A stretch of DNA of 62,334 nucleotides, counting the filler, from Platydemus manokwari (lineage: Eukaryota): the NCBI GenBank assembly GCA_037951405.1. It is 6 parts of 6 records of this genome, joined end to end, with 100 filler letters (N's around TTAATTAATTAA, not from the genome) between each part and the next. Parts side by side here need not be neighbours in the genome. Positions count along the whole stretch, not along the records: positions 1 to 9,289 come from JBBMOY011271429.1; 5 more parts are not named here. One strand, written 5' to 3'. Both the position numbers and the translations under genes were made by a program. The first letter of the stretch is position 1. Each line of letters begins with the position of its first letter. The notes beneath the pieces are model-generated. The model saw only the letters and a list, made by a program, of their open reading frames with translations. It did no database searches and was not told the DNA's origin. This document shows positions 1-50,510 of the stretch, piece by piece.

Positions 1-97
1 ATAGATTCACCTTTTCAAGAGCTTTTAAATGGTACCAAATGTTGCGTAGCTATGTTATGTTTAAATGATTTGGTAAATCAAAAACTTTAAACAACTA

Positions 98-122
98 AAA
101 AACATGAATAACTTTTGACTCA
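98..122. repeat. Dispersed repeat fragment truncating the Gypsy element
   Basis: AAAAACATGAATAACTTTTGACTCA matches the reverse complement of ~43425-43449. Confidence 0.6.
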
Positions 123-125
123 GCC

Positions 126-480
126 TAATATATCTTCGTTTTATCTTTTGGGTACAATCATCTTTGAATGACACGTATGGTTCAAACAAGTAGACACATG
201 ACGACCTTAGGTTATTATATGTAACCTTTTGTCTATGTCTTCCAAATAGACTTTCGCTCTGTTTCTTCCTTCACGTAATAATAACGACATTGACACAAGC
301 GGATTACTATCGCATTCACAATCACTTTGAAATAAAATTCCGGCATCTTCGGGTTCCTTTGTGTTTCATCCTTGGCTTCTGCTACCAGTATCAGTGCTAA
401 TATACACAATGGCATCCAAAACCATTTGTTTAACTTCACTTCGTACCTGTAGTTACTGTTGCTACTGTTCTTGTCCTGGA
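126..480 (-). pseudogene. Post-integrase ORF remnant with a signal-peptide-like N-terminus (possible second envelope/secreted protein)
   Basis: KWFWMPLCILALILVAEA|KDETQRNPKMPEFYFKVIVNAIVI follows the integrase end. A shifted frame continues to ...DDCTQKIKRRYI before truncation. Confidence 0.45.
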
Positions 481-514
481 AAGTAGCGCATGTTGGCTAG
501 GTTCTATCTCTGTT

Positions 515-1215
515 ATTCATTTGTATCTATTTGCATGGACTTTCAACTGTCCAGCCTGTTCTTTTCTTTTTAACTCTAAATTAGTAGGCGTCACTAACTT
601 CACAGTGTACAACCCTTTAAATGTTCTCTGCAACTTTTGAGAGAGTCCTTTTGCTAGTTGATGGGTATCTACTAATACCCGTTCCTCTACCTTAAACTGG
701 TGAGGCTTTGCCTTTTTATCGTATGCTTCTTTATAGCTCTTCTAATTATACTTAATTTGTAATCCGGCCCTCTTCCAAGTTATCGGCATTCTCTCCTGCA
801 TCTCTGTTCTGTAAATCCTTTCCTATATCTGTCAGTATTTTTCTTGGTCATCCATACAGGAAAACTATCTCTTCCACGAATATCTGGGCAATCTTTTCTG
901 CTTTATGGTTTGGAATCTCGAAAGCTTCCGGCCAACGCGTGAGATAATCGCAAAATACTAAAATATATCGGTTTCCTTTAGTTTTCTCTGACAATTGTCC
1001 CATAGTACACATTGCTGTGAATTCCATTAATTTTGAAATTATGTCTATTGGCTGTAGTGGCAATCTTGTCTTGGTTCCTTTATTTCTTCGTGTTCTACAT
1101 ATTTCGCATGTCTCGAACAATTTTCTAACACCAATAATTCCTTTTCAGCCTCTGAAACGTCTTTCTTGCTGATAGATTCTCTCCTAGAGTTCCATCATGT
1201 TACTGTAGCAACAAC
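515..1215 (-). pseudogene. pol: Integrase (H2C2, partial core, GPY/F C-terminal region), internally deleted
   Basis: HDGTLGENLSARKTFQRLKRNYW...CEIC; GNRYILVFCDYLTRWPEAF; FKVEERVLV...KKLQRTFKGLYTV...VHANR. Confidence 0.92.
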
Positions 1216-1554
1216 GCATCTTGTTCGGCTTTTGGAATTACAAATAACTACCCTCTATTGTCCTTGTATTTTGATACCTCATTCTTCATTACATAATTTG
1301 TTCCATGGGTTCTCAAGTAAATTTTCTTTCTACACACTTTATTTGCTGTTTAATTCTCTTCTCTTCTAATTGTCTTTCTTTGAATGCTATCTCCGCGGCG
1401 ACTGCTTCTTCGGCATCACTTACATTTATTTCTGTGTATACACTATTTGTATATTTCTGCGAATACACTATTTTCTACTGTCATCGTCAAGGTTTTTCAT
1501 GTTTGTAATGGGCATTTTCTAATTATTCTTTGTTCTCTACTTCTTCTTGAGGCA

Positions 1555-1900
1555 TCCTCGACAGAGCGTCTGCATTAGATTTTGCTCTTCCTGTTCAGTA
1601 TTTGATCTCAATGACAAATTCCTGCAGTATCAAAGCCCAACGAATCAGCTATTGGCCTATTCTCTATGCTTCAATAACCATTGTAATGTTCTATGATCTG
1701 TACAGAGAATTATTTTTCTTCCCCATAAATAATGTCGAAACCTCTTGACAGCAAATGCTATTGCTAAAGCTTCTTTTCCTATTGTCGCATAATTCTTTTC
1801 ATGCTTCTTTAAACCTGTACTTCCGTAGGCTATAGTATCTGTCATGAGCAAAAATGGTTTATTCATGTCCGGGGATCGTAAAAGCGGTTCCTTTATTAAA
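1555..1900 (-). pseudogene. pol: RNase H (Ty3/Gypsy type), disrupted
   Basis: PFLLMTD, KNYATIGKEALAIAFAVKRFRHYLWG, CTDHRTLQWL, NADALSR. Confidence 0.93.
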
Positions 1901-1999
1901 CATTCGTCTTGCTCGAAAATGATATCATTCAATTTCTTCTTTGAAGCCTTCTTTGGCTTTTCGTTTATCTCCTCAGAGCATATCATATAATGCGTCTAC

Positions 2000-2822
2000 T
2001 ATTCAGGTATAATTTTTAATAAATCTCTTGTCGTATCCTGCTTGTCCTAAAAATTCCCTAACTTCTTTAATATTTGTCGGCACTGGATACTTCTGTACTT
2101 TTGCTACATTGTTCGGGTCTGGCTTAATTCCATTTCTAGAGACAACGTGTTCAACGTATGTCACTTCTGGTTTAGCCCAATCACGGTTTGGTAGGTTTAA
2201 TTTTTAAGCCTGCTCAACTTTATCTTTTTAGGACACTCACTATGTCTTCGATATGCTTGTCCACATCTTCTGAAAAGATAATTATATCATCTAGATATAC
2301 TATTTCATGAGATATATCCATCAATAAGATGTTCATCATTCTTTGAAATTTAGCAGATGCTCCTGTTAATCCAAAAGCCATCTTATGAAATTCATATAGT
2401 CCTTTGGTCGTTGTCTAGGCTGTAATTTCCCTGCTTTCCTCTTCCATTTCTACTTGGTGATATCCTTTTTGCAGATCTATGACTGAAAATATCACTGCTC
2501 TCTTTTATCTGTCAAACATCATGTCAATTACTGGTAAACGGAACGTATCTTTTCTAGTCACTTCGTTAACCTTCCCATAATCTATACAAAATCTTTGAGT
2601 TCCATCTTACTTCTTTTCTAATATAAAAGGTGATCTCCATGGTGATGAACTCTCTTTTATAGTTTCATTACTTAACATTTCTTGGAGCTGTTTATCCACT
2701 TCTCCTTCTAAAGCACATGACACTCGATATGGTCGCTGTCTGATCGGCGTCGTATATGTTAATATAATCTTTTGTTTCAATATAGTACATTTCCCTAAAT
2801 CGTACTTGTTTTTATCAAACAC
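2000..2822 (-). pseudogene. pol: Reverse transcriptase (Ty3/Gypsy type), disrupted
   Basis: PIRQRPYRV, ESSSPWRSP, DGTQRFCIDY, IDLQKGYHQV, GLYEFHKMAFGL, FQRMM, VYLDDIIIFS (~2275-2300). Confidence 0.95.
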
Positions 2823-3234
2823 ATCATGATACTTCCTAATTTCGTTTAGTAACTTTTTCTACAAGTTTTCATTGAACATCTGGATTTCGATTGTAATTGG
2901 CTTATAACTCACGACTTCGCTAATGTTTCCAATGACCGTTTCTAATTCCAGGGTGACAATTTCTTCATCCTCATGTCTAGCTTGAGTCTTCTAGTTCTTT
3001 CTTCAAAGTTCGTTATACGAATGGGTATTTTTCCATTCTTAATTTGCACTTCTTGATCCTGAACATTAAACTCCTTGGCCATTCATTCGTTTGGTTCAAG
3101 CAACATTGGCTCTGATCCTTGTATGTCTGTCTGCGCAAAGCATACTACTACCGATCGTTCTGCTATTATCACTGTTCCTGTCACATATGCTTCATCTTGT
3201 TTTCTTTTCCTCGTTTCCTTTTCATTGCGATTTA

Positions 3235-3520
3235 GTTTCCGGTGGCCAAATCAAACACCACTCCGTCCATTTGTCCTAAGATATCCATTCCTATTATTAC
3301 TTCGAGAGGGCAATTTTTCATTACTCTCAATTCATGAGTGAACTTGTATTCACTTACTTGCACTTTGCATAAGATTTTGCATTCAAATGCAATTTTCTCT
3401 CCTGTAACGGTTCTAGGTAACCCTACTCCCGTGAGTAGCTCTAACTCTTCCTTAGTTCACAATTTATGTGAGATAATTGATACATCTGTTCTTGAACCAT
3501 TTCGTAGTCATTAACTTTCA
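3235..3520 (-). pseudogene. Retropepsin aspartic protease (degenerate)
   Basis: FFKVKVNDYEM, then (frameshift) GSRTDVSIISHKL as a remnant of DxGAxVSII, and CPLEVIIGMDIL, the I(L/I)GxDxL motif. Confidence 0.75.
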
Positions 3521-3569
3521 CTTTGAAAAAATCTTACTGTGATTTGATTTATGTACCATATTTATTCTG

Positions 3570-5691
3570 TTATCCGGTATTGGAAACCCTGTTCGAGCCC
3601 AACTGTCTGCCAAGTGAGTTTTTGAATTTAGCTTCAATGATTTAGTAATTGAATACTTCTCTTTAAAATTTACTAATTCATTTTTCAGATACAATTGTTC
3701 CAATTCACATGGTGCTGTGGGTTGTTTTGTTTAACATCTGAACGTTTTAGTTACTGAGCTTAATCTTTTTAATGATCCTGATCTGGTTCTGCTTGGATTG
3801 AGTTCTATACCTGATTCGCTATCTATCCTCAGTTGATTTTTCAATAATCCTTCCTCTTCTTTTTCTGTCGAATCCCTGTTATTATCTTAGTAGGTAGCAG
3901 TTTCTGGTTGTCCTGATATATTTAATTTTTCTTTCAATTTTCTTATTTACTGTTGCTTCTCCAGTAACACAAATTTAGCAATGAAAGGTATACACACTAT
4001 CAATGCGTTCCATGTTCATTCTAGTACTTTTATTAGTGGGTATGTCGAAATAATCTGATTCAACAACATAATTATTACAACTTATAAAAGCAAATTCCTA
4101 TAAATGCTGATACCACATTTCCTATGGCTAAAAATCCTCCCCGTGTCCTGTGAAGAAAAGTCATTGCTGGTCTGTTAAATTGGTCTGGTGCTTATAGGTT
4201 CCCGAAGTTCGACTTCTCTTCGCCTCCTTGCAATACTAAATCTACCATTTTGTTCTGACCTCTCTTTCTTGGCTCAATGGAAACATTAAGTTTCTCATGT
4301 CTTGACGGCTTGAAATCTAGTCCTTATTCCAGTCTGATATTTTCTAAATTAACTACCTTTTTTGTTGGTTCCTTGCTTGGCTTTTTATACCATACTCCGT
4401 TAAGAGTATACAGCGGTGCTGACATACCGTTGCACTGCATCGTTTTTGCTTTAACATTCTTATTCACCAGTATCCGAGATATTGCTTTTAAGAGTCTATT
4501 TTACCCATTATAAACAACAGGTAGTTCATTAGTACATTCTTGTTGTGTTCTTAATGGACCGTTATCTCATTTATAACTATATAATGCTTCACCCATTATT
4601 CTAGCAAAAATTCCTTTCTCTGGTAACAACATCGGTGCTATTAACTTTGGATTATTGACTAATATCAAAAACCTATTTCTCAATATTTCTCTATTGAGTC
4701 TACAATCGTTAAGAATCATGTCATAATAAACATTCTTGATCTGATCCTGAATTGTGTGATTCAAATAATCTTACTAATAAATAATATTACAAATAATCTT
4801 ATTACTAACATCGATATTGTTCCTGATATCCGCTTCTCCAACTTTCTTTTCTTGTTTTTGATACTAGTATTCCTGGATTGTTCGTATGGTAGATACTTCT
4901 CTAACATCCTACCGTCTTTTCTTTTCTGATAAATCTCATACCTTCTTTCTTGTTTACGCTGACCAAAGCTATTGGGGCTTCTTCTAGTTCTAATTCTCGT
5001 GTTGCTGTTCCTTCTTTCAGGGTGGCTTTCAAATCCCGAATTGAGTCCTTAATTATTTCTCCTTTTGTTCGGAAGAATTCAGCTGAGCTTATATAAGCTA
5101 ACTGGCATGTCATTGGCCGTAACTCACATACTAAAGTTGCTTGTCCGGTAAAACAACTAGTTACTTTACTAGTGTAGTTCGGATATGATAACATCGCTCC
5201 TAATTTCTCATCAAAAACTTCTTCTACTTCTCTTAACTCGGTTTCATAATCATAGATAGTAACTATATTATATTCATAGTATTTTCCTCTATTAATCGTT
5301 TGTCCAGTTCATAGACCATCACCGTATTTATTACACCTTTTTCTACTGTGAGAGTCGTTTTTTTTAACAATTCTTAACTTTTTTGTTCTTGGTATTATTT
5401 TGGCAGAGACTATTGATGCATGACTGTTATATCCACAATAGTATTCTTATTTAGCTCTCTTTGCTCTTCATTCTCTTACCTTTGCCCTTCTATAGCCAGT
5501 TTCTTGATATGCATGGTATATAACTTTTGTCGTGTTTATCTTCATCGGTCGTGCCTCTAGGCAATCTTCTAAATCCACTAGCGAATATATCTTAGCTGAG
5601 GTTTGTCGAAATCGAATGCTTTTATGGCCGCAGTTCCTGTCCTATTAAATAAACTCATTATCATGATTATTATTAACAATATCATTCGCAT
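3570..5691 (-). pseudogene. env: Envelope-like glycoprotein, chuvirus-type / class III (herpesvirus gB-like) fusogen family
   Basis: Signal peptide MRMILLIIIMIMSLFNRTGTAA; AFD..SLVDLEDC; YYCGYNSHASIV (~5410-5445); DCRLNREILRNRFLILVNNP...GIFARIMGEALYSYK; ECTNELPV...ISRILV...QCNGMSAPLYTLNGVWY; hydrophobic GGFLAIGNVVSAFIGICF / VIIMLLNQII / WNALIVCIPFIAKFVLL (4140-3962); then a hydrophilic tail. Confidence 0.82.
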
Positions 5692-5699
5692 CTGTGCTC

Positions 5700-6660
5700 C
5701 TAATTCTATGTTCGGTGTTTCTCTCACTTTGGATGGTTTGGGTTTGCTCTTCTCTTTGATCAGTCCTTCCCATCCGAAGTGTCTATTCACCCATGGCTCG
5801 ATATATTTTTCCAACAAAGTGGCCATTTTTCCTAGATATTCTTGGTACTTCTGTGGTGCTTTATAGTTACTCCATATAGCTTTCGTATCATGAAGTCTAT
5901 AGATATTTAAGCTTTCTCGCGTCCCATTGCTCCTTGAGCAAAGCTTCTGATGATCTCTTCGTCATCCTCTTTTTCATCTGATATGATGTGTTGAATTTGA
6001 TTTTCTACCCCCACTAATTCAGTCCTCAATTTCCTAAATAACTCATTGTCTATTAGATCTTGTAAGTCTGTTGGTGAGGTTAATTCCGGATGTAGCAATT
6101 ATATGCTTTCTCCAACATGTCCTCTGCATGTGTTGATGCCTCCTGTGGGACCTACGAAATTGATGCTTTAAACCTTTATTTTTGCAACCTTTGTGCAATA
6201 ATGAGCTTCAATTAGCTCATTAAAATGTCCTGCCATATTCAACATTATGTGCATCGGTCTCGTATTCTCTTGGTATGTCCTAGGATATAATCCAAATATT
6301 GCTAATAGCACTTTGATTTCTGGTGCAAATGTACTAAATTCTTGAAGGTGAGTTCTGCTTTTATCTATTAATTCTCTAAACACATGTAGTGGAACTATTA
6401 CCCCAAATACCATCTCATATATCTCTTTTATTTTTGTGTTCGAGGCTGCTTTTGAAATTCCTCAATTAATTCTTCGGGAATTCTTTCCAACTGATCTTTA
6501 TCGTCTAAATCTAAGACGATTATCACTTGTTTACCTTCTTTATTTATTTCTTTAATCAATTTATCCTTTTTCTTCTTATTTTGCCTTGCCAATTGAAGGC
6601 GTAATTCATCTATTTTTGCATAAAGTTTTACTCTCTCATCACCTTGAGATGATACATAAT
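5700..6660 (-). pseudogene. Unknown ~320-aa domain between Gag and glycoprotein (weak SGNH/GDSL-hydrolase-like pattern)
   Basis: Coding-like frames continue from Gag: RVKLYAKIDELRLQL...VIIVLDLDD..., then ORFs 6168-6413, 5907-6098 and 5578-5826. The SGNH resemblance is by eye only. Confidence 0.5.
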
Positions 6661-7990
6661 TGACTCAGGGTCTTCCCAGCGAAGTGTTTTTCCAACCTTG
6701 CCTCTTTTTGATTCTTCACAGACTCTCGCCATGTGTCCTGTTTTTCCGCATTTAAAACATAGAGCGTATCCTATAACATTTACTTTTTCTCTGCCTGGTT
6801 TCTTGAATCAGCAGGTTTCCTCTGAATGTCCTTTCCTCTTGCAGTGTTGACAAACCTTAGTTCGACAATCTTCTGCTTTATGTCCATTAATTCCACAGTT
6901 GGAACATACCGAAACTTTATTGCTCTTCTTTGGAGATCGTCAATCTTTTGCTCGATGTCCTTTTCTATCGCAATTTTAACATCGCAAATCTCTCTGTTTT
7001 GGTAAAGTATGCTTCCTTTTCTGGTTTACTCGAGACTGGGGCAATTGCAGTACTGGTTTTCTTGATGGCAATTTCAACTTTCATTGCTTTATCCCTCATA
7101 TCTTTAAACTCTTTAAATTCCAATACCGTTAATGGTACTCTAATTGCTTCTTGATTGATTTCTTCTTTTACTTCTGCGGACCACAATACTCGCTGTCCAT
7201 GTACTCCTTCAGCGATTCTAAATAATCGGTAATCATATGCACCCACCGTTTCTTTTTTTCTGTCTTATCTGCATTAATTGCTGCTTGCGAAGTCTTCTGA
7301 CGTCGCCAATTCTTAAACTGTTTCTTAATGCCGTAACCAAGTCATTCCAATTTTTCATTTCTGATACTTGATTAAGGCATTCCTAAGTTCAGTAAATGGG
7401 TAGTCTGCAGCACATAGTTTCTGAATTATAACTGTATGCTTTGGCAATTTCATAATTTTCCGCCATAAAATCCTTAAATTCCAAGAGGTCTCCTCCGTAA
7501 GTCTTTACGGGTAATTTTACGCTGATCATCATCCTTGATTGGCACTCAAGGTCATCATAACCATATCTGCTTGGTTTAGAGCTGCTTTTGTCTCCCATTC
7601 TTCGTAAGAATCTTGTTAAGTTTTCTATTTCTAGTGCTACCGAATCTGGTATTTCTCTGTCCTTTCGTTGACTTTTTCAGACAAGTTGTCTCTGTCTTGT
7701 TGTGCTTCCAGTTTGTCTTCTATCTTCTGATGCACTTCGTTTGCCAGAAGACGCCCTTGTCTGTTTAATAATTCTATAAGCTTGTTTCTCTTGAAACTAA
7801 GCCTTCTTGTTTTCTTCTGAGTTTCTTTTCTGTGAACAGATCAGTCTTCGGATAACACTTTCTAATTCAAATCTTTGACTACCTTCTGACGACTCCAAGT
7901 CTTCTAACTGCTTCCTAATTATTTAAAATTGCTTTGGCTTGTTTCTTTTGACTGAGTTCTGTTTTTTCTTTCTTCTAACAATTCTTGTCT
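6661..7990 (-). pseudogene. gag: Gag (capsid-like region plus three CCHC zinc knuckles)
   Basis: Capsid-like 'KLPVKTYGGDLLEFKDF...' at ~7520-7470. Knuckles CSNCGINGHKAEDC, CQHCKRKGHSEETC and CFKCGKTGHMARVC lie in one frame at ~6906-6718. Start position uncertain. Confidence 0.88.
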
Positions 7991-8030
7991 TCTGATATTA
8001 TGACAATCGTCTACTTATTGCCTCCGATTT

Positions 8031-8106
8031 TATAGTGATATTTTGCTAGCAGCACTTGCAGCAAAGTTTCATACTACCGAGTTCACATGCGCAGTCAACT
8101 TCTACA
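8031..8106 (-). repeat. Possible shortened 5' LTR remnant
   Basis: Minus strand begins TGTAG and ends CTATA (one change from CTACA) just upstream of gag. No partner LTR is visible to confirm it. Confidence 0.25.
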
Positions 8107-8732
8107 TTTAGATTGATATCACCCGATATTAATCAATAATTCCTTTTCTGAAAAATTGGGTGGGTATAATTAATTAATACATTAAAACAAATTGTAATTT
8201 CTTAATAATAATTTTAAATTCTTTATTTATTCAAATGATTATTTTGCTTACTAATGATTTAATTTTAAAATTATTTTCTACTTTATTTATTTTAAGTAGA
8301 ATAAATTTATTTTCTTTATCTTTTAACTTATCTTTATTTTTATATTTTTCATTATGGGCTCTTCAATTTAATTACTTTTACATTAGCTCACTTTAGTTTC
8401 CAGTAGTCGTATATTTATTCAATTATTAAATTTGTGTTTAAATATATATTTATCACAATTGATCTTTTGATTTCTACTTTATCTTTTATTGATGAAATGA
8501 GATTTGGATAATATGTCTTATTTTCGAACCAATTTTTTTATCTAATTACCTTTCAAATTGAGGTCTAAAATATTTAAACATTATCCCTACATATTCGGTT
8601 TCTATTTTATTGCTTTGTAGAAATTTTATGTTTAATTTTTTCCCTAAATAAAGGTATTATTTTAATCATTTTTTGTTGGTATAATTATTTTATCATATAG
8701 CTCTTTATTTTTCTTAATAGAAAGTTATCTCA

Positions 8733-8970
8733 ATTGTGGAAGTGGCAATCAATAGGCGAAAGGTCTGGTTGATCAGGGAGTTCCAATTCCAGTGCTTTTA
8801 GTTGTGGCACAGTTATTTGCGCAGTGTGTGGTCTAGCATTATCATGCATAAAGATAGGAGTCGATATATTGAACAATATAGGCTGTTTTTACTTTAATTT
8901 TTTGAATAGATTACAATATACTTCTGCCTTGATCGATAAAGAATGCTTGTTGAAATCATAATGGATAGAA
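8733..8970 (-). mobile_element. mariner transposase fragment
   Basis: IHYDFNKHSLSIKAEVYCNL...PIFMHDNARPHTA...PDLSPIDCHF (HDNARPH and YSPDLAPxD-like motifs). Confidence 0.9.
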
Positions 8971-9289
8971 TTATTGACTAAAAATTTCATTCTCAAGTGC
9001 CTCTACCTAATATTTTTTATATTTCTAAATCTACAAATTTATTATCGTTTATATTTCTAAATTACCTTTTATTACCACCAAAAATGTATTTCCTATCATA
9101 TATTTCATCTATTGAATTAATTATCGTGTTATCCTGTCTAATCAACAAATTCTACATTTTGCCTTTAATATTTTGATTATGATGTTTTTATTTTTCCGCA
9201 GTCATTTATTAGTACAATCAAATTTTTAATCGTTAGCCTCAAATTCAAAATTAAAGAATTAAATTTTCAAAAAATTATATGAAAGGACA

Positions 9290-9467: not shown

Positions 9468-11126
9468 TTTACTCTTGGGATTTTGTTATTTTTATTCTTT
9501 TTCTGTCTAAAATTGAATTTTAAGTCGAAATTGATAAATAAAAAAAGTGATTGTAAATAAATTTGGAAAATAAATAATACACCGAAAAGTCATTAAGTGA
9601 AAATTTTGACAAATTTAAGCCGTTTATTTTAATTCGCTATCACAGTTCCAAATAAATGCACACTTTACTCGATGTACTTTTTACATTTTTATGTCAGTCT
9701 TAAAATTATCGTGCTTTATCGTCTTGCTGTGTATGTGAGCTGGATAATTGAATAAGTTTTATTGTTAGTATTATGATCCAGAAGTGTAGTTATTATTTAA
9801 TTTATTGATAAATATATTTATGCCAAATGTCAGATCTGAAGATGTTCGTGGAGAAAATACAGCGAAGTATTTCGAAAGTATGGATAAGATAGTGCTCAAC
9901 TTGGATAGTGAGGACAGCGAATATGAAAAAATACCCATCGTCGTTAGCTAATACACTGCGTGAAAGTAGAAAATAGATCACAATTAAGAAGTATATTCTG
10001 ATAAATAAGGCATAAGAGAGTGAAATTAAGGAAAAAAATGCTTGGCAACAGTTGCCCGGTCTAAAAAATGAATGGAAAGAGAAGAAAAAGATCTGGTGAG
10101 AGAAAAACTTGAGCGTGGATTTGGAAGCCTTATATCAGCATAATTCCCGAAAAAAAAGTCCTGTTTTCAATTATAGAGAGCTATGATTTTGCGATTTTCT
10201 TACTCTTAAACATTTCTACTTGTGATTATGTGACACGTATTTTTTGACTATTTGACTTATAATAGAAAACCTTTAACAACTCAGTATTTTAAACTTGGGT
10301 TTGGTTTAATCAAGATGATAATCCATTTGCTTCAACTAAAATTTAAGTTTCGTTGCAGCAATCGATTCACATAAAAAGATGTCTTTAATTTTACCTGCAG
10401 TTTCGTCTTCATACGAATAACCAATAAGAGCTAAAATAAAACCTATACCATTGTATATATATAGATCAAATATTAAAAAAGGAATGAAATATCTAAAAAT
10501 AATACCTAGTTATGGGAATCAAGTTAAATAATGAATATTTTAAAGTTAAAAATGTTAATATTTCTTGACATCGATTAAATAACATGTTTTATTTTATTTA
10601 AATCTTAAAATTAAAAATTCAGGCAATCCAATTTTATGCAAGTGTTTTTAATATTTATATTAATTTTAAGATATACTTTGCAACCATAACATAATTTTAT
10701 TAACGACGATTTTAAAATTTACCCTAAGCATCATAAAATTACATAATCACATTAATAGTCCGAACTTTTATTCTTTATTTTATTGACTGGAATAATCCTT
10801 TGTTCGACTTGTAAGGATATTCTTTTCAACTAAATGTTTATTGTTTTTGATTAAATAGAATTCCCTATTGTTTTCAATTACTTGGAGATTATTACAAACT
10901 AAATTTCGATCACCACATTGACCTATATTACGTAATTTCGAAAATGAACCATTATATAGTACACACAAAATAATAAAAATGGCTCATCCATACAATTTAG
11001 ACCGATTGCTAATCATCACACAAATCGAAAACAATTTAAAATATTGCAAGAGATTTACAACAAAAAATTAGAATATATATAATTTATTTAACAGCACATT
11101 GTCCAAAGACAATCAAATCTAATTGA

Positions 11127-11520
11127 TTACGAAATTCTGATCATTTTGTCAATATCATCCACATGTGACTTCAAAATAGCCCATTGCTCGGGTTTAAGGC
11201 AAATACCTAAAATCAATTAAAGCTCTTTGTAAATAATTATGTTAAATTACCTTTTTTAGATGGCTTCAATTCACCGTGACTATCAGCATAAAACTCTCTT
11301 ATATCAACAAACGTTTTGTTTTTAAACTTCCTAACCTTCGCGTATTTCTTTTCACCTAAATCAAAACCTAATTCATTATCAACTGTTTGAGGCTTCTTTT
11401 TAACTGTTGGCTATTTATTATCAATAATAAATATCGGTAAAACTAAGATCTTACTTCATCTTCAATGCTACTTAGATCAGAAGACTCTTCAGCCTTTTCT
11501 ATTTTTCTTTTAGGAGCCAT
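11127..11520 (-). CDS. SUB1: Transcriptional coactivator PC4/SUB1 (101 aa; exons 11520-11455, 11410-11251, 11206-11127)
   Basis: Spliced product MAPKRKIEKAEESSDLSSIEDE|PTVKKKP...FDLGEKKYAKVRKFKNKTFVDIREFYADSHGELKPSKKG|ICLKPEQWAILKSHVDDID contains the PC4 ssDNA-binding signature. Two 44-bp GT-AG introns keep the frame. Confidence 0.95.
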
Positions 11521-13129
11521 TTAAATTTTTAATAATTATTTAAACAAATTCCAAAAAATTAATTAATTAATTACATTTTACCTTTATCATAAGAAAAAAT
11601 TGTAGAATTAATTTAAATAAAATTATATAGAAATTTAAAAATATTTCATAAAAAAAACTAACCTTTTTTACAATTAATATTTATTTATTAGTTTGATAGA
11701 TTTAAATATTAATTATTAATTTATAATGTCGATAAAATTTCTGAATATAAATAAACTTAAAGCATACGATTCTGCATTATTTTTAAATCGTTTATTAAAC
11801 GAATAGTATAATCTTTGAATATTATGATGTTATTTACTTTTATATTTATATAGTTACAAAAAATTGCTGGTACATCTGAATAAATTATTCAATCAGCCTA
11901 TCTAAAAGTAAAATGTTATGTGGTCTACTGATTGAATGAATATTCTTTGTTATTATTGCTATATATCCAAATATTAGAATAGATATCATTTTGTGTCTTG
12001 GTTGTGTTTCAAGTATACTATTTGGTTTCGTTCCTACTAGTCCTTTATGTTTTATAAGTTCAGAAGGATAAAATTAAAGAAAAATAATATTAATATAAGT
12101 ATTTTGCTTGACCCCGAAGGCGCAATAATAGAAACAATGATAATAATTTAAGTATAAATAAATAAACGAAAATAAATGAAAGTATATTATTGTTAAATTA
12201 AACGATGTACAAATAATAATCGCAAATGATTAAATATCAATTTGCAAATATAAAATAAAATAGTAACTATTATATGACAAATAACCTGGATTATATTAAT
12301 TAGAGGCTAATTAATTGTTTTAATTAGAGGCCATTGTTGTGTATACAAATTTTAATAGTCTCTTGTCCAGTTATTTGCAAGGTCCTTGAATTCTTATTTG
12401 TGATAGTTTGTGCTTACAAAATCCGGTAACTATAAAGTTAAGAGAATCTTAGTTTACTAGATTTTAAGTGATTAATAAATGAGTGATTGGACGAGATCCA
12501 AGCAACTTTTAATGAAAATGTTTCTTAAATAATGATTATGAAATATATTGTAGAAAAAATCCATTGAAATAATAAAAATTAAATTTCCTTTTTATCACAT
12601 TTATTTTGAAAATAACTCCTCTTTTTCTCACTGTAATTCTAATTTATTAAGAATATTTCTTATACAATAGTTCTTATCTTGATTAACAGAGAAGTGTCGC
12701 CCGTGAACAATTATTGATTGTTTAAGTGCAGGGAAGGTGCCCCAAGTATCAGGACACAAGAACTAATTGAGCTGGACGATGAGGGGAACTGTGATCGAAA
12801 AAAACTGTGAAAAAATCGACCTGAGTGAGAGAACAGAGAGAACCAAGACGGACCCGACAATCTCAAATGAAGCAATAATCGGGTCATCAGGTGGTGGAAA
12901 CTCCGCAAACTAGTAAACATTAATGAAGAGTTCGACCACGGTTATGTTATACATAAAACTACATTGTTAAACATTCATGGTCCATATTTGAGCTCATAAT
13001 ATTCAAATTATTAATCAATACATAAAAGAATTAGCAACGGGAAGTTAGACAGATAACATAGATAACAAAGATAAGTTGTTAGAAAATCACATAGAAGTCA
13101 CAACAGATAACAGTTACAGACCAAAAGCC

Positions 13130-13908: not shown

Positions 13909-14601
13909 ATGTCCAAAGAAATAATTTTCGTATCTGGAAACGTGAATAAAATTTCCGAAATGAAGAAAATTTTAGACGATTCTCGAATAAAAGTTTATTT
14001 GATTTTCCAGTTTTCCATTGACTTCCATTGGCTAGGTGATTTCTCAGAAAATTGATTTACCCGAATATCAAGAAAGTATGGTGGAGATCAGTAATTTAAA
14101 GGCCAACCATGCTTATTCAATTCTAAAGAAACCTGTGTTTGTTGAAGACACAAGCTTGTGTTTTGCAGCTTTGCATGGTATGCCTGGACCATATGTGAAA
14201 TGGTTTGTCAATGGAGACAAATTACAAACCTTGGAGAAATTAAAAGGTTTAACAAAGTTGACCAGAATTGTGGGAACTATTAATGACGCTCATCTTCAGG
14301 GTTCAGGAAAATGCTTGTCGGATTTGATAATTTTCAAGCAGAAGCCGTCACAGTTATTTCTTATTTTGATCCACAAATAATGGACGAGCCAAAAGCTTTT
14401 GTTGGCAAAGTCGAAGGTCAAATTGTCGAGCCAAGGGGCTCGTTAAATTTTGATTGGGATTGCGTATTCGAACCTAAGATTCAGTGTCAGAAAGTTCCGC
14501 AAACGTACGCTGAAATGGATATCAATTTTAAAAATCAGATGTCCAACCGATATTTAGCCGGTCAACAATTTAAGCAATTTCTCATTAATCAATATTTTTA
14601 G
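13909..14601 (+). CDS. ITPA: Inosine triphosphate pyrophosphatase (HAM1 family; 198 aa; exons 13909-13992, 14036-14246, 14300-14601)
   Basis: IIFVSGNVNK, IDLPEYQ, VEDTSLCFAALHGMPGPYVKWF, GQIVEPRG, QTYAEM. Introns of 43 and 53 bp (GT-AG) restore one frame. Confidence 0.95.
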
Positions 14602-40654: not shown

Positions 40655-43070
40655 TACAAGATTTATTCAATACAATTTTGTTGGGTTTATTGGATTGATT
40701 GTGACCTGCTTTGGTTTGAAAGCTTTGATTCGTGAATTCAATTTTCCTTTTTCATTCATTCATCTCGGCTTTCCGTTGGGTAGAAATTTTTTATTTTGTG
40801 TTGGATAAAATCTATAAAAACACCGTTCTAGTGAAATTACCAGATTTTTACCGAATGTTCAATATTTAAAATTGCGCATTCTTTGACCAGGTTTTGGGTT
40901 TTATTTTTCGGCACGCGAATTTTCGACAAATTTTCTTAGTTGATGCCGGAACTGTATCGAGTGAGCCTATAATGCACGTGAAAAGCTCAATATTGAAATC
41001 TGGCTTCAATTTGGCTAGCTCATTCTTAAAATCGGTATAATGAATTAAATTATTTTTGTTTGACTCCTCAAAGTTCTTTTTGACATTTCATGTCTACTAG
41101 GAAGATCTTTTTTCGCTCTACATCAGTAATCAATAAATCGATGCTCTCTTTTCTTTCCGGTAACAGTGAGCACATTTGGTTCACTACTACAATAATATAT
41201 TTTGTTCAAAGACAGTCAATAATTTTGTTCAGGTATGCACCATGGCGAGTATTTTGTAGCTTTTTGTTTGGGTTGCAACACTGTAGTACATGTGTCATGG
41301 TTTCAGGGAAACCAAGGCAACGTCGGCACTTTTGGAATTCCTCGTTTATCTTCCAAGGCGATGCATTAATTGCTAGAGTATTTGTTCTAGCTGACGAATG
41401 GACTTAAACGCAAAAGATTTCACTTGACTACGAAAAATCATCTTATTGTTTCGTGGAGATAGCCTTATTGGATCTGCTATGAAATTACTGCGTTTACTGC
41501 TGTCTTGAATAATGAGATTCTTTAATCAATTGATGTGAAACAAGACATAGTTGTTTTCGATTACGAGAACCAAAGTTGTAAGTACCGCAAAATCAAATGT
41601 CATCCTCAAGTGTGTTTCATCTTAACGAATTCAAAAATCAAGAAATTTTGTGAGTATTTTGAAAATATTTCACACCATTGATAACATGTATCCAAAAATC
41701 TTTTTAGGGTTTTCTTTAGATGGCTTCAATGGCCTCAAGTACTGAATATAGAACAGCCTTGTTTGACTCCTCTTTGAATGAGTCTACAAACATAAAATAA
41801 ACTTATATCAGTGTAGAACAATTCAAGAATATACACTAAAGAGTCATTTACACCTATAAATCGCAGCAGACCTCATAGAAATTCATGTGGAACGCTGGGA
41901 AAGGCGTTGACAATCTCAAGCCAAGCAACATAAATGAACAGTATATTTTAAATGTTCAAAACCAGCATTTAGAATAGATTTGTGTTCAATATAACCTTCC
42001 TATATAGAACCACCTTTTACCTCTGTTGAGCAAGTTATAATCTCTTATCCAATGCTCTAATCTTCTAGTCAAGATTGACAAAAAAATTCTATATTAAATT
42101 GATATTAAGTTATTGTTCGCCAGTTATTTATATTTTTATATTGGTCATCTTTACTAGGTTTTGGAATGAGGGTTGTCTTAAACTTTCGCCAATCGTCTGG
42201 AAATTTATGAGTCGAAATGACTTTATTATGAAGTGGAGATAGAAGAATACCTCCTGGATCTAAGAGTAAAAGGTACGGTATTATTTTGTCATCGCCAGGT
42301 GAGGTGTTGTCTGCGGATTTAAAAATAGAGTGAACTTCACTTGGATGAATAGGTTCTAACTCTAATTTATCAATGACAGTTTTACAATACCGATTATTAT
42401 AATCACACGCGGTTGGGCACAGTTTTCCTGAGAAAACCACTAATTATATCATCAGTAGATGGTCAAGAATTGATTTCATCATCATTAACCATATCATTAA
42501 TGGTCTTTCTCATGTTTGTTAAAAAGATCATTTTTATGTTGTAATCGTTAGTTTTTTATTGAAACCTTACTTTACTCCTAATTATGGTTGATTTCGATTG
42601 TCATTTTGATTTTGTATTTTATTCGAAAAGCAGTTAAAAGTTTTATTCAAGTTGACATTTGGATCACGACATTTACAATTCTTCTCTTACTTTTGTTATT
42701 TTTACTCATTCTTTGAATATTTTAAAAATATATTTAGTCTTTATTTTCCATAACATTATCGGTGATTAACAGATTATCAAGACCATCCATATTATTCAAA
42801 TAATTGGATATTATGTCAAAATTGATATTCAAAAATGACAAATTTTTGATATAGTTAAGCAGATAACCGCATAAAAGAATATTTGAGAAAAGTCCAGAAC
42901 TGCGAGTTTCATATTCTTCATATTGGACAACAATGAAATGATCTTTCAAGCCCCGTAGTTCTAAGATGGAATTAGTAATCATTTGACCAAATGATAAATC
43001 GATCATTGTAAGTTTAAGTTGTCGTAATTTAGAACGGAGACAACATTTTGGGCCAAGTGAAGTGTTGGGT
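40655..43070 (-). mobile_element. Non-LTR retrotransposon with RT and restriction-like endonuclease (NeSL/Utopia-like), decayed copy A
   Basis: TSPGDDKI, WRKFKTTLIPK, NINNWRTIT, AFPSVPH; zinc knuckle CRRCLGFPETMTHVLQCC; RH; IDLLITDVERKKIFLVDMKC (RLE). Homologous to 47985-50510. 5' end approximate. Confidence 0.88.
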
Positions 43071-47399: not shown

Positions 47400-50300
47400 T
47401 TTATTCAACGAATTCTCTCCTTCATTAAAATTCGGATTACTGATTAAAATAATATTTTAGCAGATGATAAACAAATATCATCAAGTTTTAAACTTAAATA
47501 AGTTCGGTCAAGGTTCTTTAAATAAAAATATATGACCATTAGATCCGCATATCAATATTTTCAGACAGAAAAATGGTTATGACTGTGGTCCACTTGTATG
47601 CGCATATAGTTAATTTGTAAGCTATATAAGCAAACAATTCATCAACCCAAACTTTATTAATCGCATCCGATAGGAAATCTACCTTTTACAGTGTGATAAA
47701 GTGAATCACATATCACAATTAGGTTGTAATGGCAACATGAATAATAATGCCAATTATAGTAGACTAAATTTTAAAATTAACGAAAATATTTTTAATGAAT
47801 TCTCTAATCAATATAATACGACGGATGAAGTAATGTTTATAGATTATACCTTAACCACTGTCATCCGCGATGAATGTACGGATTATTTGAAAAACTTTCT
47901 TCATTTGGATAAATTGATTCAAGCTTCCACGATCTTCGTAATGTTTAGGCCTCCAAAGGCTCATCGATTGCTTTTAGTTATTGACTTTGCCCTAAGTGTT
48001 GTCTTCGTTCTAAATCCGATAACTTTAATATGTAGTGATCAATTTATATCTTTGGGCCAAACGATCACCAATTGCACATTAGAACTGCAGGGCTTAAAAG
48101 AATCTTTCGTTGTTGTCCAATATGAAGAATATAAAACTCGTGGTTCTGGACTTTTCTCAAATATTCCTTTATGTGATTATATGTTTAATTATTATATAAA
48201 ATTTGCCGCTTCTGAATATCAATTTTGACGTGATATTCAATTATTTGAATAATATTGATGGTTTTGATAATCTGTGAAACACCGACAATGTTATGGAGAA
48301 TAAAGACCAAAAATGTTTTAAAAATACTCAAAGAATGAGTAAAAATAAAAAAAACATAAACGAAAAATGTCGCGAAATATTGAAAAAAGTCGAGAACTCC
48401 AATCCAAATGACATATTGAATGAAATTTTCAACTGCTTTCCGGATAAAATACAACACCAAAATAATAACCGGAATAAACCATATTTGGAAATAAGTAAAG
48501 GATTTAATAAAAAAACTAACGATGGCAACATGACAAAATTACAAACAGTGGTGTTCACTTTTAGATCCTGAAGGTATTCTCCAAACTCACAGTTTTAATG
48601 AAGTAATTAAGACTCATAAATTTACAGACAATTGGCGAAAGTTTAAGACAACCCTCATTTCAAAGCTTGGTAAAGATGGTCAGTATAAAAATATAAATAA
48701 CTGGTGAGAAATAACTCTCTTATCAACTTCATACAAGATTTTTATGTCAATCTAGACTTGAAGATTAGACCATTGGTTTAGAGATAATAACTTGCTCAAC
48801 AGCTGTCAGAAAGGTGGTTCCAAATATGAGGGTTGTATTGAACACAACGCCATTCTAAATGATGCTTTTGAACATTTAAAACATACTCGACATTTGTCCA
48901 TTTCTGTTGCTTGATTTGACATTGCAAACGCCTTTCCAAGTGTTCCACACACACACACAAGCCATTGAAATTCTATCAGTTCCTAGTTTCTAAATAGGAA
49001 TTAGGTCTGTTAAGATGGTATTGCTTTGATTGCCAATAATACTCCTGATCTTCAAAAACTAATCGATAAAGTTGTTGAAATAACTGAATGGGCTGGTTTA
49101 CAATACCGTCAAGACAAATGTACCTTTATAAGTTTACTACACGAAAACACTGATGATGTAATATCTATTGATATTGTAAATATTAAAAAATTGTTGACTA
49201 AAGAATTTTACATGTATTTTGGTGTCCCTGTTGGTGTTAAAAATGATCAATCTTCTTACGAAATTTTGAACAAACTTGTAATTGATCTTGGTAAAATAGT
49301 CAATTCTGAATTATAGGATTGGCAAAAGCTTAATGTTTATATAATTTTCTTGCACTCTGGACTTGTATATGCGTTTAGAAGTAGAGAAATCAAATTTTTT
49401 TGTAGTGAAAGAGAAAAGTAGTAAAATACAAGCTCACATGAAGCAATTACTTCATTTACCAAATCAAGCTGAAAATTATTATCTTTATTCAGCGATAGTA
49501 AATGGGGATGTTGAACTTTTCGCATTCATTGATGAATATCACCTTCAATACGTTTTCCAAGTATTTTTTAAAAACTCTTTTAAAATCTGATTGTTCACTG
49601 AAAAAGATAATTATCTATGATTCATTTTGCTTTGTTTCTTCTACAAGATTTTGTATTGCCAATCCATCAATTAATGAAAGCCTTAAATGGATCAATAATA
49701 AAAATCCATAGAAAATTCTGCTTTTAAAATGACATGGTAGATACATGTTATCAATGCTGTGAAATACTCACAAAATTAGCTTTATTTTTGAATTTGTTAA
49801 AAATGAAACTTACTTAATGCATCGCCCCGGAAGACAAATGAGGAAAACCAAAAATGCCGAAATTGCCACAGTTTCCTGAAACCATATCTCATGTACTACA
49901 ATGCTGCAATCCGAACAAAAAGCTACAAACTGCTCACCATGATGCATGCCTGAACAAAATTGTTGACTGTCTTCAATAAAAAAATATTATTGTAGTAGTA
50001 AATCATGTAGTAGACATGAAATGACCGATTGACACACTACAAAACTTCGAGGAGTCAAATAAAAATAATATAATTCATTATACCGACTTTAGGAATGAGC
50101 TCGCCAAATTGAAACCAGATTTCAATATTAAGCTATTCAGGTGCATTACAGGCTCACTTGGTACAGTTCTGTCCTCAATTTGGCTGTTCCGGAATCAATT
50201 TTGGCGAAAATTGGTGTGCCGAAAAATAAAATCCGAAACTTGGTCAAAGAATGTGCAATTTCAAATATTGAACATTTCTCGAAAGTCTGTCATTTTCACT

Positions 50301-50510
50301 CGACCGGTGTTTTGGTAGATTTTATCTAACATAAAACACAATCAAACAATTCCTATCCACTTAAAAGCGGAGATGAATGAAAAAAAAGCAAAATTGTTAC
50401 ATGATGTGCCTCTACTGCGCCAATGACTTCACGAATCAAAGCTTTCAAACCGAAGCAGGTCAAAATCAATCCAATAAACCAAACAAATTTGTATTTAAAT
50501 AAATCTTGTA
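47400..50510 (+). mobile_element. Non-LTR retrotransposon with Ulp1-like protease motif, RT and RLE (NeSL/Utopia-like), decayed copy B
   Basis: RQKNGYDCGPLVCAY (47563-47607); ITLLSTSYKIF; CQKGGSKYEGCIEHNAIL; DIANAFPSVPH; YMYFGVPVG; CRNC..PETISHVLQCC; 3' UTR shared with copy A. May extend 5' to ~46600. Confidence 0.88.

Follow-up and report, generated by a model that had tools for sequence, protein, structure and literature searches.

A decayed Ty3/gypsy retroelement of Platydemus manokwari carrying a gB-like glycoprotein between gag and pol

INTRODUCTION

Does a viral-type fusion glycoprotein found between the gag and pol regions of a retroelement belong to that element, and is such an arrangement new? 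This question is raised by a 62,334-nucleotide stretch of Platydemus manokwari DNA (NCBI GenBank assembly GCA_037951405.1), here called the window, in which N-linkers separate successive contigs. Of these, the first (positions 1-9289, JBBMOY011271429.1) carries the retroelement in question. A first-pass annotation made from the sequence alone had proposed an enveloped, potentially infectious Gypsy lineage with a gag-env-pol layout. Our analyses favour, with a probability of about 0.88, a decayed element from a Ty3/gypsy family that exists in many copies, has gag-env-pol order and a gB-like env, and is likely to be a compact, Burro-like member of a published flatworm group.

Arrangements of this kind have precedents in the literature. 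Errantiviruses of nematodes, bryozoans and flatworms carry an HSV/gB-type env (HSV, herpes simplex virus) in GAG-ENV-POL order (PMC13524379), and the supplement of that study lists 36 elements of this type from nematodes, 9 from flatworms and 10 from bryozoans. Env also precedes pol in a nematode metavirus (non-canonical endogenous retroviruses (ERVs), Sacco et al. 2022, cited in PMC13524379). The planarian element Burro encodes three CCHC knuckles, a Ubi/SUMO-like domain, a BCL2 domain, an in-frame env that matches mononegavirus fusion proteins, and a protease (PR) (PMC6431247).

RESULTS AND DISCUSSION

Env lies between gag and pol of a Ty3/gypsy element

The retroelement occupies about 131-8370 on the minus strand, with its 5' end at about 8130 or beyond, and its GC content is 35-37% compared with ~25% elsewhere in the window; AT-rich DNA fits planarians. 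Eighteen frame pieces were compared with Pfam, with stop codons read as X, and seven yielded no match of any kind. The matches define the minus-strand order Gag (three CCHC knuckles), linker, Monjiviricetes-type glycoprotein, protease, reverse transcriptase (RT), RNase H (RH) and integrase (IN), which places env between gag and pol on the same strand. The order PR-RT-RH-IN, combined with an RT that is 38-63% identical to gypsy-type Pols, identifies a Ty3/gypsy element. Thus, the co-oriented gene order, the Ty3/Gypsy assignment and the three CCHC motifs that had been placed at ~6906-6718 are all confirmed (Table 1).

The glycoprotein is predicted to adopt a gB-like fold

Two pieces of env match the family Monjiviricetes_fusion (PF24664), one at 5590-4832 (29.2 bits, E 3.2e-7) and the other at 4845-4072 (86.2 bits, E 1.7e-24), and both exceed the curated cut-off of 27 bits. 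Hydropathy analysis reveals a signal-like hydrophobic run at about 5703-5647 and, as had been claimed, two hydrophobic segments, at about 4140-3960. The chuvirus-class identity given to a glycoprotein spanning 5691-3570 therefore stands, whereas its extent does not: neither the ectodomain nor the hydrophobic segments continue past about 3960, and the remainder (3960-3530) is a tail or linker.

A search of PDB sequences with a single env piece produced one irrelevant match only. When a profile of 79 env homologs was used, all 33 PDB matches at E<=1 were herpesvirus gB (best E 0.023). An AlphaFold2 (AF2) model was also made for an intact relative, P0051, which is 29-32% identical to the window env; its mean predicted local distance difference test (pLDDT) value is 84. 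The top Foldseek match of this model is HSV-1 gB (E 1.4e-13), and each of the 38 listed rows is a herpesvirus glycoprotein, 37 of them named gB. The TM-scores are low (0.2-0.37), perhaps because the model represents a hinged monomer. PF24664, the homolog profile, the relative's model and hydropathy together support the prediction that the window env is a chuvirus-class glycoprotein of the class III, or gB, fold with a signal peptide and a transmembrane anchor, in agreement with the earlier suggestion of a class III fusogen related to herpesvirus gB.

Relatives join env to pol

Using the C-terminal env piece, HMMER identified 248 proteins at E<=0.001, with identities of 31-38% among the top nine. 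From 150 of these that were listed, 16 were chosen for domain scans (the best and the longest), and in 10 of them env is followed by pol domains within a single open reading frame (ORF). An example is P0199, which has the order env-PR-RT-RH-IN, is 4844 aa long and also contains ankyrin repeats. In addition, three metagenome loci were confirmed among 595 candidate stretches: L003 is one gag-env-PR-RT-RH-IN frame of 2693 aa, L001 is a frame of 3426 aa with an open 5' end, and L002 consists of Gag and linker followed by a stop and then env. With P0050 and L001 as queries, tblastn reaches down to about 480 in the window integrase. Word-seeded homolog searches with an env piece and a linker piece found nothing, a weak negative given the 248 env relatives that HMMER found, and no env relatives were found in viral contigs.

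Trees of RT (49 rows) and env (41 rows, including 40 hand-chosen relatives) were midpoint-rooted without named references. One clade of the RT tree, comprising 10 of the 49 rows (95/93), unites the window RT with P0007, P0008, P0009 and all six of the env-in-frame polyproteins, which had been selected by env similarity rather than by RT. The corresponding env clade (18 of 41 rows, 99/98) holds the window env and all 13 env-pol polyproteins; 23 stand-alone glycoproteins fall outside it.

Some of these relatives have additional features. Tandem aspartic-protease-like domains lie between env and RT in P0049, P0050, P0053, P0054, P0056, P0199 and L001, and as many as three of them score in L001 and in P0199. 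A separate ORF of 496 aa downstream of the L001 polyprotein (10617-12107) matches RNase T / DEDDh exonucleases (E 1.4e-5). The database record of P0052, an env-pol polyprotein, assigns it to a Flavobacteriaceae metagenome-assembled genome as a hypothetical protein, which probably reflects animal contamination of the bin.

Env is probably expressed as part of a polyprotein

The relatives also bear on the expression of env, which the first-pass annotation did not address. In seven of the nine best env homologs, env runs in frame into a downstream protease in the same ORF, and L001 and L003 are likewise single frames. A competing explanation accepts the same family but has env made separately, from its own ORF or from a spliced message. 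Separate production would accord with the Met and signal-like stretch that env possesses at 5691, with the stop directly before env in L002 and with the termination of P0051 and P0057 after env; furthermore, Chary and Hayashi describe three ORFs, and the terms 'polyprotein', 'single ORF' and 'fused' are absent from the main text (PMC13524379). Nevertheless, we regard this explanation as improbable, given the frames just described, the in-frame env of Burro (PMC6431247) and the lack of room for a separate start where the env tail meets the protease.

If env was produced within a polyprotein, the once-active family would have used one long frame to encode Gag, ubiquitin-like and Bcl-2-like domains, Env, PR, RT, RNase H and IN. 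Entry of the Env ectodomain into the endoplasmic reticulum would depend on an internal signal peptide, and signal peptidase would separate Env from Gag. The transmembrane anchor would then leave the following chain back in the cytosol, where the protease could release itself and the enzymes. Env trimers in the membrane of budding particles might promote fusion with neighbouring cells, and enveloped particles would likely pass between cells within one animal, with the Bcl-2-like domain perhaps serving to dampen host cell death.

Env is a trait of the family

Sequencing depth was obtained from one public run that contains the stretch and is possibly the window's own source, and the values represent summed depth rather than copy number. 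A total of 2948 contigs were placed on positions 1-9280, and between 311 and 8370 each of the 26 bins has a summed depth within 438-2057. Env depth is 656-1876 (six bins), compared with 9-56 in three flank bins. Env is covered as deeply as pol, and the depths show that env is present in many diverged copies. The junction between env tail and protease is covered in 29 of 29 bins by 114 contigs, 104 of which are <95% alike, and one diverged contig of 1508 nt has matches on either side, in the env tail as well as in the protease. The ends of env show no unusual repeat (the longest shared word is 8, which is equalled by 196 of 464 random pairs), and base composition is even along the retroelement, with A at 0.40-0.42 from gag to IN.

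A nested one-off insertion of a chuvirus-like endogenous viral element encoding the glycoprotein into an ordinary gypsy element, or a misassembly, might be suspected from the fragmented, N-linked assembly and the single copy visible in the window, but it is very unlikely in view of the depth, the absence of a repeat at the env ends and the uniform composition, and it is largely refuted by the junction contigs and the agreeing RT and env trees. Depth, junction contigs and concordant trees likewise sustain the earlier view that env is a trait of the lineage.

The linker resembles a module of Burro

The first-pass annotation correctly noted a domain between Gag and the glycoprotein, but left it unread as 'unknown'. 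Residues 608-663 of L002 align to window positions 6341-6174 (E 0.002), and for its residues 650-701 the match to Pfam ubiquitin is weak (E 0.0047) and falls below cut-off. L002 also aligns to window positions 5835-5758 (E 0.057), and a profile of the helical domains that precede env in L001 and L002 ranks window positions 5874-5743 first among 3108 chunks (E 5e-4). When compared with PDB, this profile finds Bcl-2 or Bcl-xL in 56 of 60 listed rows (best E 0.0085); a designed helical protein ranks first. The linker is likely similar to the module of planarian Burro that combines ubiquitin-like and Bcl-2-like domains, with matching order and position and weak scores. A Ulp1-like protease was also considered for the linker and was rejected, having no Pfam support.

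Comparison with published elements

Among published elements, the Platyhelminthes_C1a errantiviruses (Smed_errantivirus_1-6; Chary and Hayashi, eLife 2026, PMC13524379) share the same gypsy pol, gag-env-pol order and gB-type env. Aligned by eye, the window env has 15/23, 7/12 and 15/29 identities with Smed_errantivirus_2 in three blocks and 21/58 identities with Smed_errantivirus_1 in a fourth. Six short env motifs, again by eye, have matching context only in six Schmidtea rows of the 229-sequence table of PMC13524379. These comparisons suggest that the window env is closest to the Schmidtea group of published elements. The window copy is dead and would be removed by the intactness filter of that study.

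The giant Burro / GYPSM1 elements (PMC6431247) and the window element both have a Gag with three CCHC knuckles and an env placed before PR, and weak matches in the window point to putative counterparts of the ubiquitin/SUMO-like and BCL2-like domains of Burro. The internal region is about 8 kb in the window but up to 25 kb in Burro, and the MATH, BIR, ankyrin and midasin-like regions of Burro were not seen in the window pieces scanned. Because of its ~8-kb size and the absence of MATH, BIR and ankyrin Pfam matches in those pieces, the element is Burro-like in layout rather than Burro proper. Nematode ERVs share the position of env before pol, but the 11 nematode env rows shown in PMC13524379 do not have the blocks common to the window and the Schmidtea group. 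Mosquito BEL/Pao elements captured the same class of glycoprotein (Dezordi et al. 2020, PMC7642597), but are not gypsy elements.

Gag-env-pol order was published in 2019 (Burro), 2022 (nematodes) and 2026 (PMC13524379), and novelty of the lineage or layout is not supported; nor is the potential infectivity proposed in the first-pass annotation. What survives of the proposed enveloped Gypsy lineage is the layout as a family trait, and the window copy adds one decayed, compact Burro-like family to an arrangement that was already described.

Decay of the window copy and points of weakness

The window copy is dead, and none of its proteins can be made. Its three env pieces contain 4, 8 and 4 stops, the RT and CCHC pieces contain 4 each and the integrase core contains 1; frame changes occur near 5590, 4840, 4075 and 3525. 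Every gene piece counted is broken, such that the copy lacks the intact ORFs used as the inclusion rule for listed gag-env-pol errantiviruses.

Several observations weigh against our interpretation of this element. The gB-like fold was predicted for P0051 and not for the window env itself. The single frame is read from relatives, the window copy is broken at the env-protease junction, and the stop between the Bcl-2-like domain and env in L002 demonstrates that a single frame is not universal. The ubiquitin-like and Bcl-2-like calls have weak scores and involve pieces picked after a motif had been sighted, and Pfam showed no match in the pieces scanned to a dUTPase-like domain such as Burro has. 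Finally, no pair of long terminal repeats (LTRs), primer-binding site or target-site duplication was found within the window. Comparison of the 5' and 3' ends for LTRs gave no match beyond chance, the 3' end being truncated by another repeat and the window edge, and there are no direct repeats in L001 or L003. A contig joining 130 to 8127 was rejected as a sign of LTRs, because its short side measures only 22 letters and an unrelated repeat ends at 130.

A membrane protein after integrase in the clade

Downstream of integrase, a membrane segment is present in each of the six clade Pols whose C-terminus is complete, compared with none of 27 other gypsy Pols >1000 aa, and five of the six also have a signal-like segment there at the chosen threshold. 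The module in P0008, P0009, P0050, P0052, P0118 and P0199 is in frame and comprises a signal-like run, a two-cysteine beta domain, a Thr-rich stalk and a transmembrane helix. The two-cysteine motif is common to five of the six, and leave-one-out profiles recover it with single-sequence E values of 1e-9 to 6e-4. By eye, L001 (9044-10100) and L003 (7700-8520) carry a similar module. Most of the modules give weak FN3 matches, and a three-sequence profile finds FN3-type chains in 9 of 11 PDB matches at E<=5 (best E 0.095), a hint rather than proof. A further signal-domain-transmembrane module lies just before the last protease in P0008 (aa 46-232) and L001 (4751-5320). The corresponding stretch of the window (430-131) has a signal-like run only, with no profile match to the relatives' domain.

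One tentative and rather doubtful interpretation is that the clade makes a two-glycoprotein envelope, in which the gB-like fusogen is accompanied by an FN3-like type I protein after integrase that acts in attachment or as a decoy, with window positions 430-131 as a remnant. If so, these elements would be comparable to viruses whose fusogen is accompanied by a distinct attachment protein, both produced from one polyprotein via internal signal peptides. No description of the post-integrase protein was found in the available part of PMC13524379 or in the literature searched; Grohme 2018 and Sacco 2022 may bear on this point.

Other features of the window

Table 1. Features of the retroelement and its boundary, from 5' to 3' of the element.
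Feature	Position	Strand	Evidence
AT-rich 5' stretch in many copies, candidate remnant of a leader or 5' LTR	8127-8370	-	depth 1951 in bin 8061-8370, 9-56 in flank
Gag capsid region, broken	6950-8000	-	tblastn with L002 Gag: 7592-7239, 30%, E 4.6e-9
Three CCHC zinc knuckles	6718-6906	-	zf-CCHC E 6.9e-10
Likely ubiquitin/SUMO-like domain	6150-6345	-	weak L002 alignment, E 0.002
Likely Bcl-2-like domain, C-terminal (BH2-like) piece only matched	5743-6100	-	two-sequence profile, E 5e-4
Env: signal-like stretch, predicted class III (gB/chuvirus-type) ectodomain, two hydrophobic segments; stops/frameshifts	3960-5703	-	PF24664, hydropathy
Env cytoplasmic tail / linker to protease	3530-3960	-	junction covered by diverged contigs
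Aspartic protease, broken	3232-3528	-	RVP_2 below cut-off (E 0.0016); P0052 match in tblastn, E 5e-6
Reverse transcriptase, connection, RNase H	1650-2940	-	RVT_1 2930-2229 E 1.9e-19; RT_RNaseH E 1.3e-19
Integrase: zinc finger, core, C-terminal part	480-1310	-	Integrase_H2C2 E 6.3e-6; rve below cut-off (E 3.1e-5)
Post-integrase stretch, opens with signal-peptide-like run (by eye)	131-430	-	no profile match to relatives
Very high-copy repeat, unrelated, truncates retroelement at 130	1-130	.	depth 317539 in bin 1-310

The end of the repeat at 1-130 resembles a mariner terminal repeat. Upstream of the retroelement, a putative mariner-like transposase fragment at 8730-9005 (-) carries a motif of this kind and gives a Pfam E value of 0.2. 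Elsewhere in the window, 11130-11520 (-) and 13910-14600 (+) contain what we take to be host genes resembling PC4/Sub1 and inosine triphosphatase, and introns read by eye in genes nearby measure about 41-45 nt, a length that fits several phyla. Inverted copies (81-92% alike) of a ~2.4-kb repeat occupy 40666-42996 and 48047-50498 on neighbouring contigs, and a fragment of RT like that of long interspersed nuclear elements (42105-42443) adjoins these copies.

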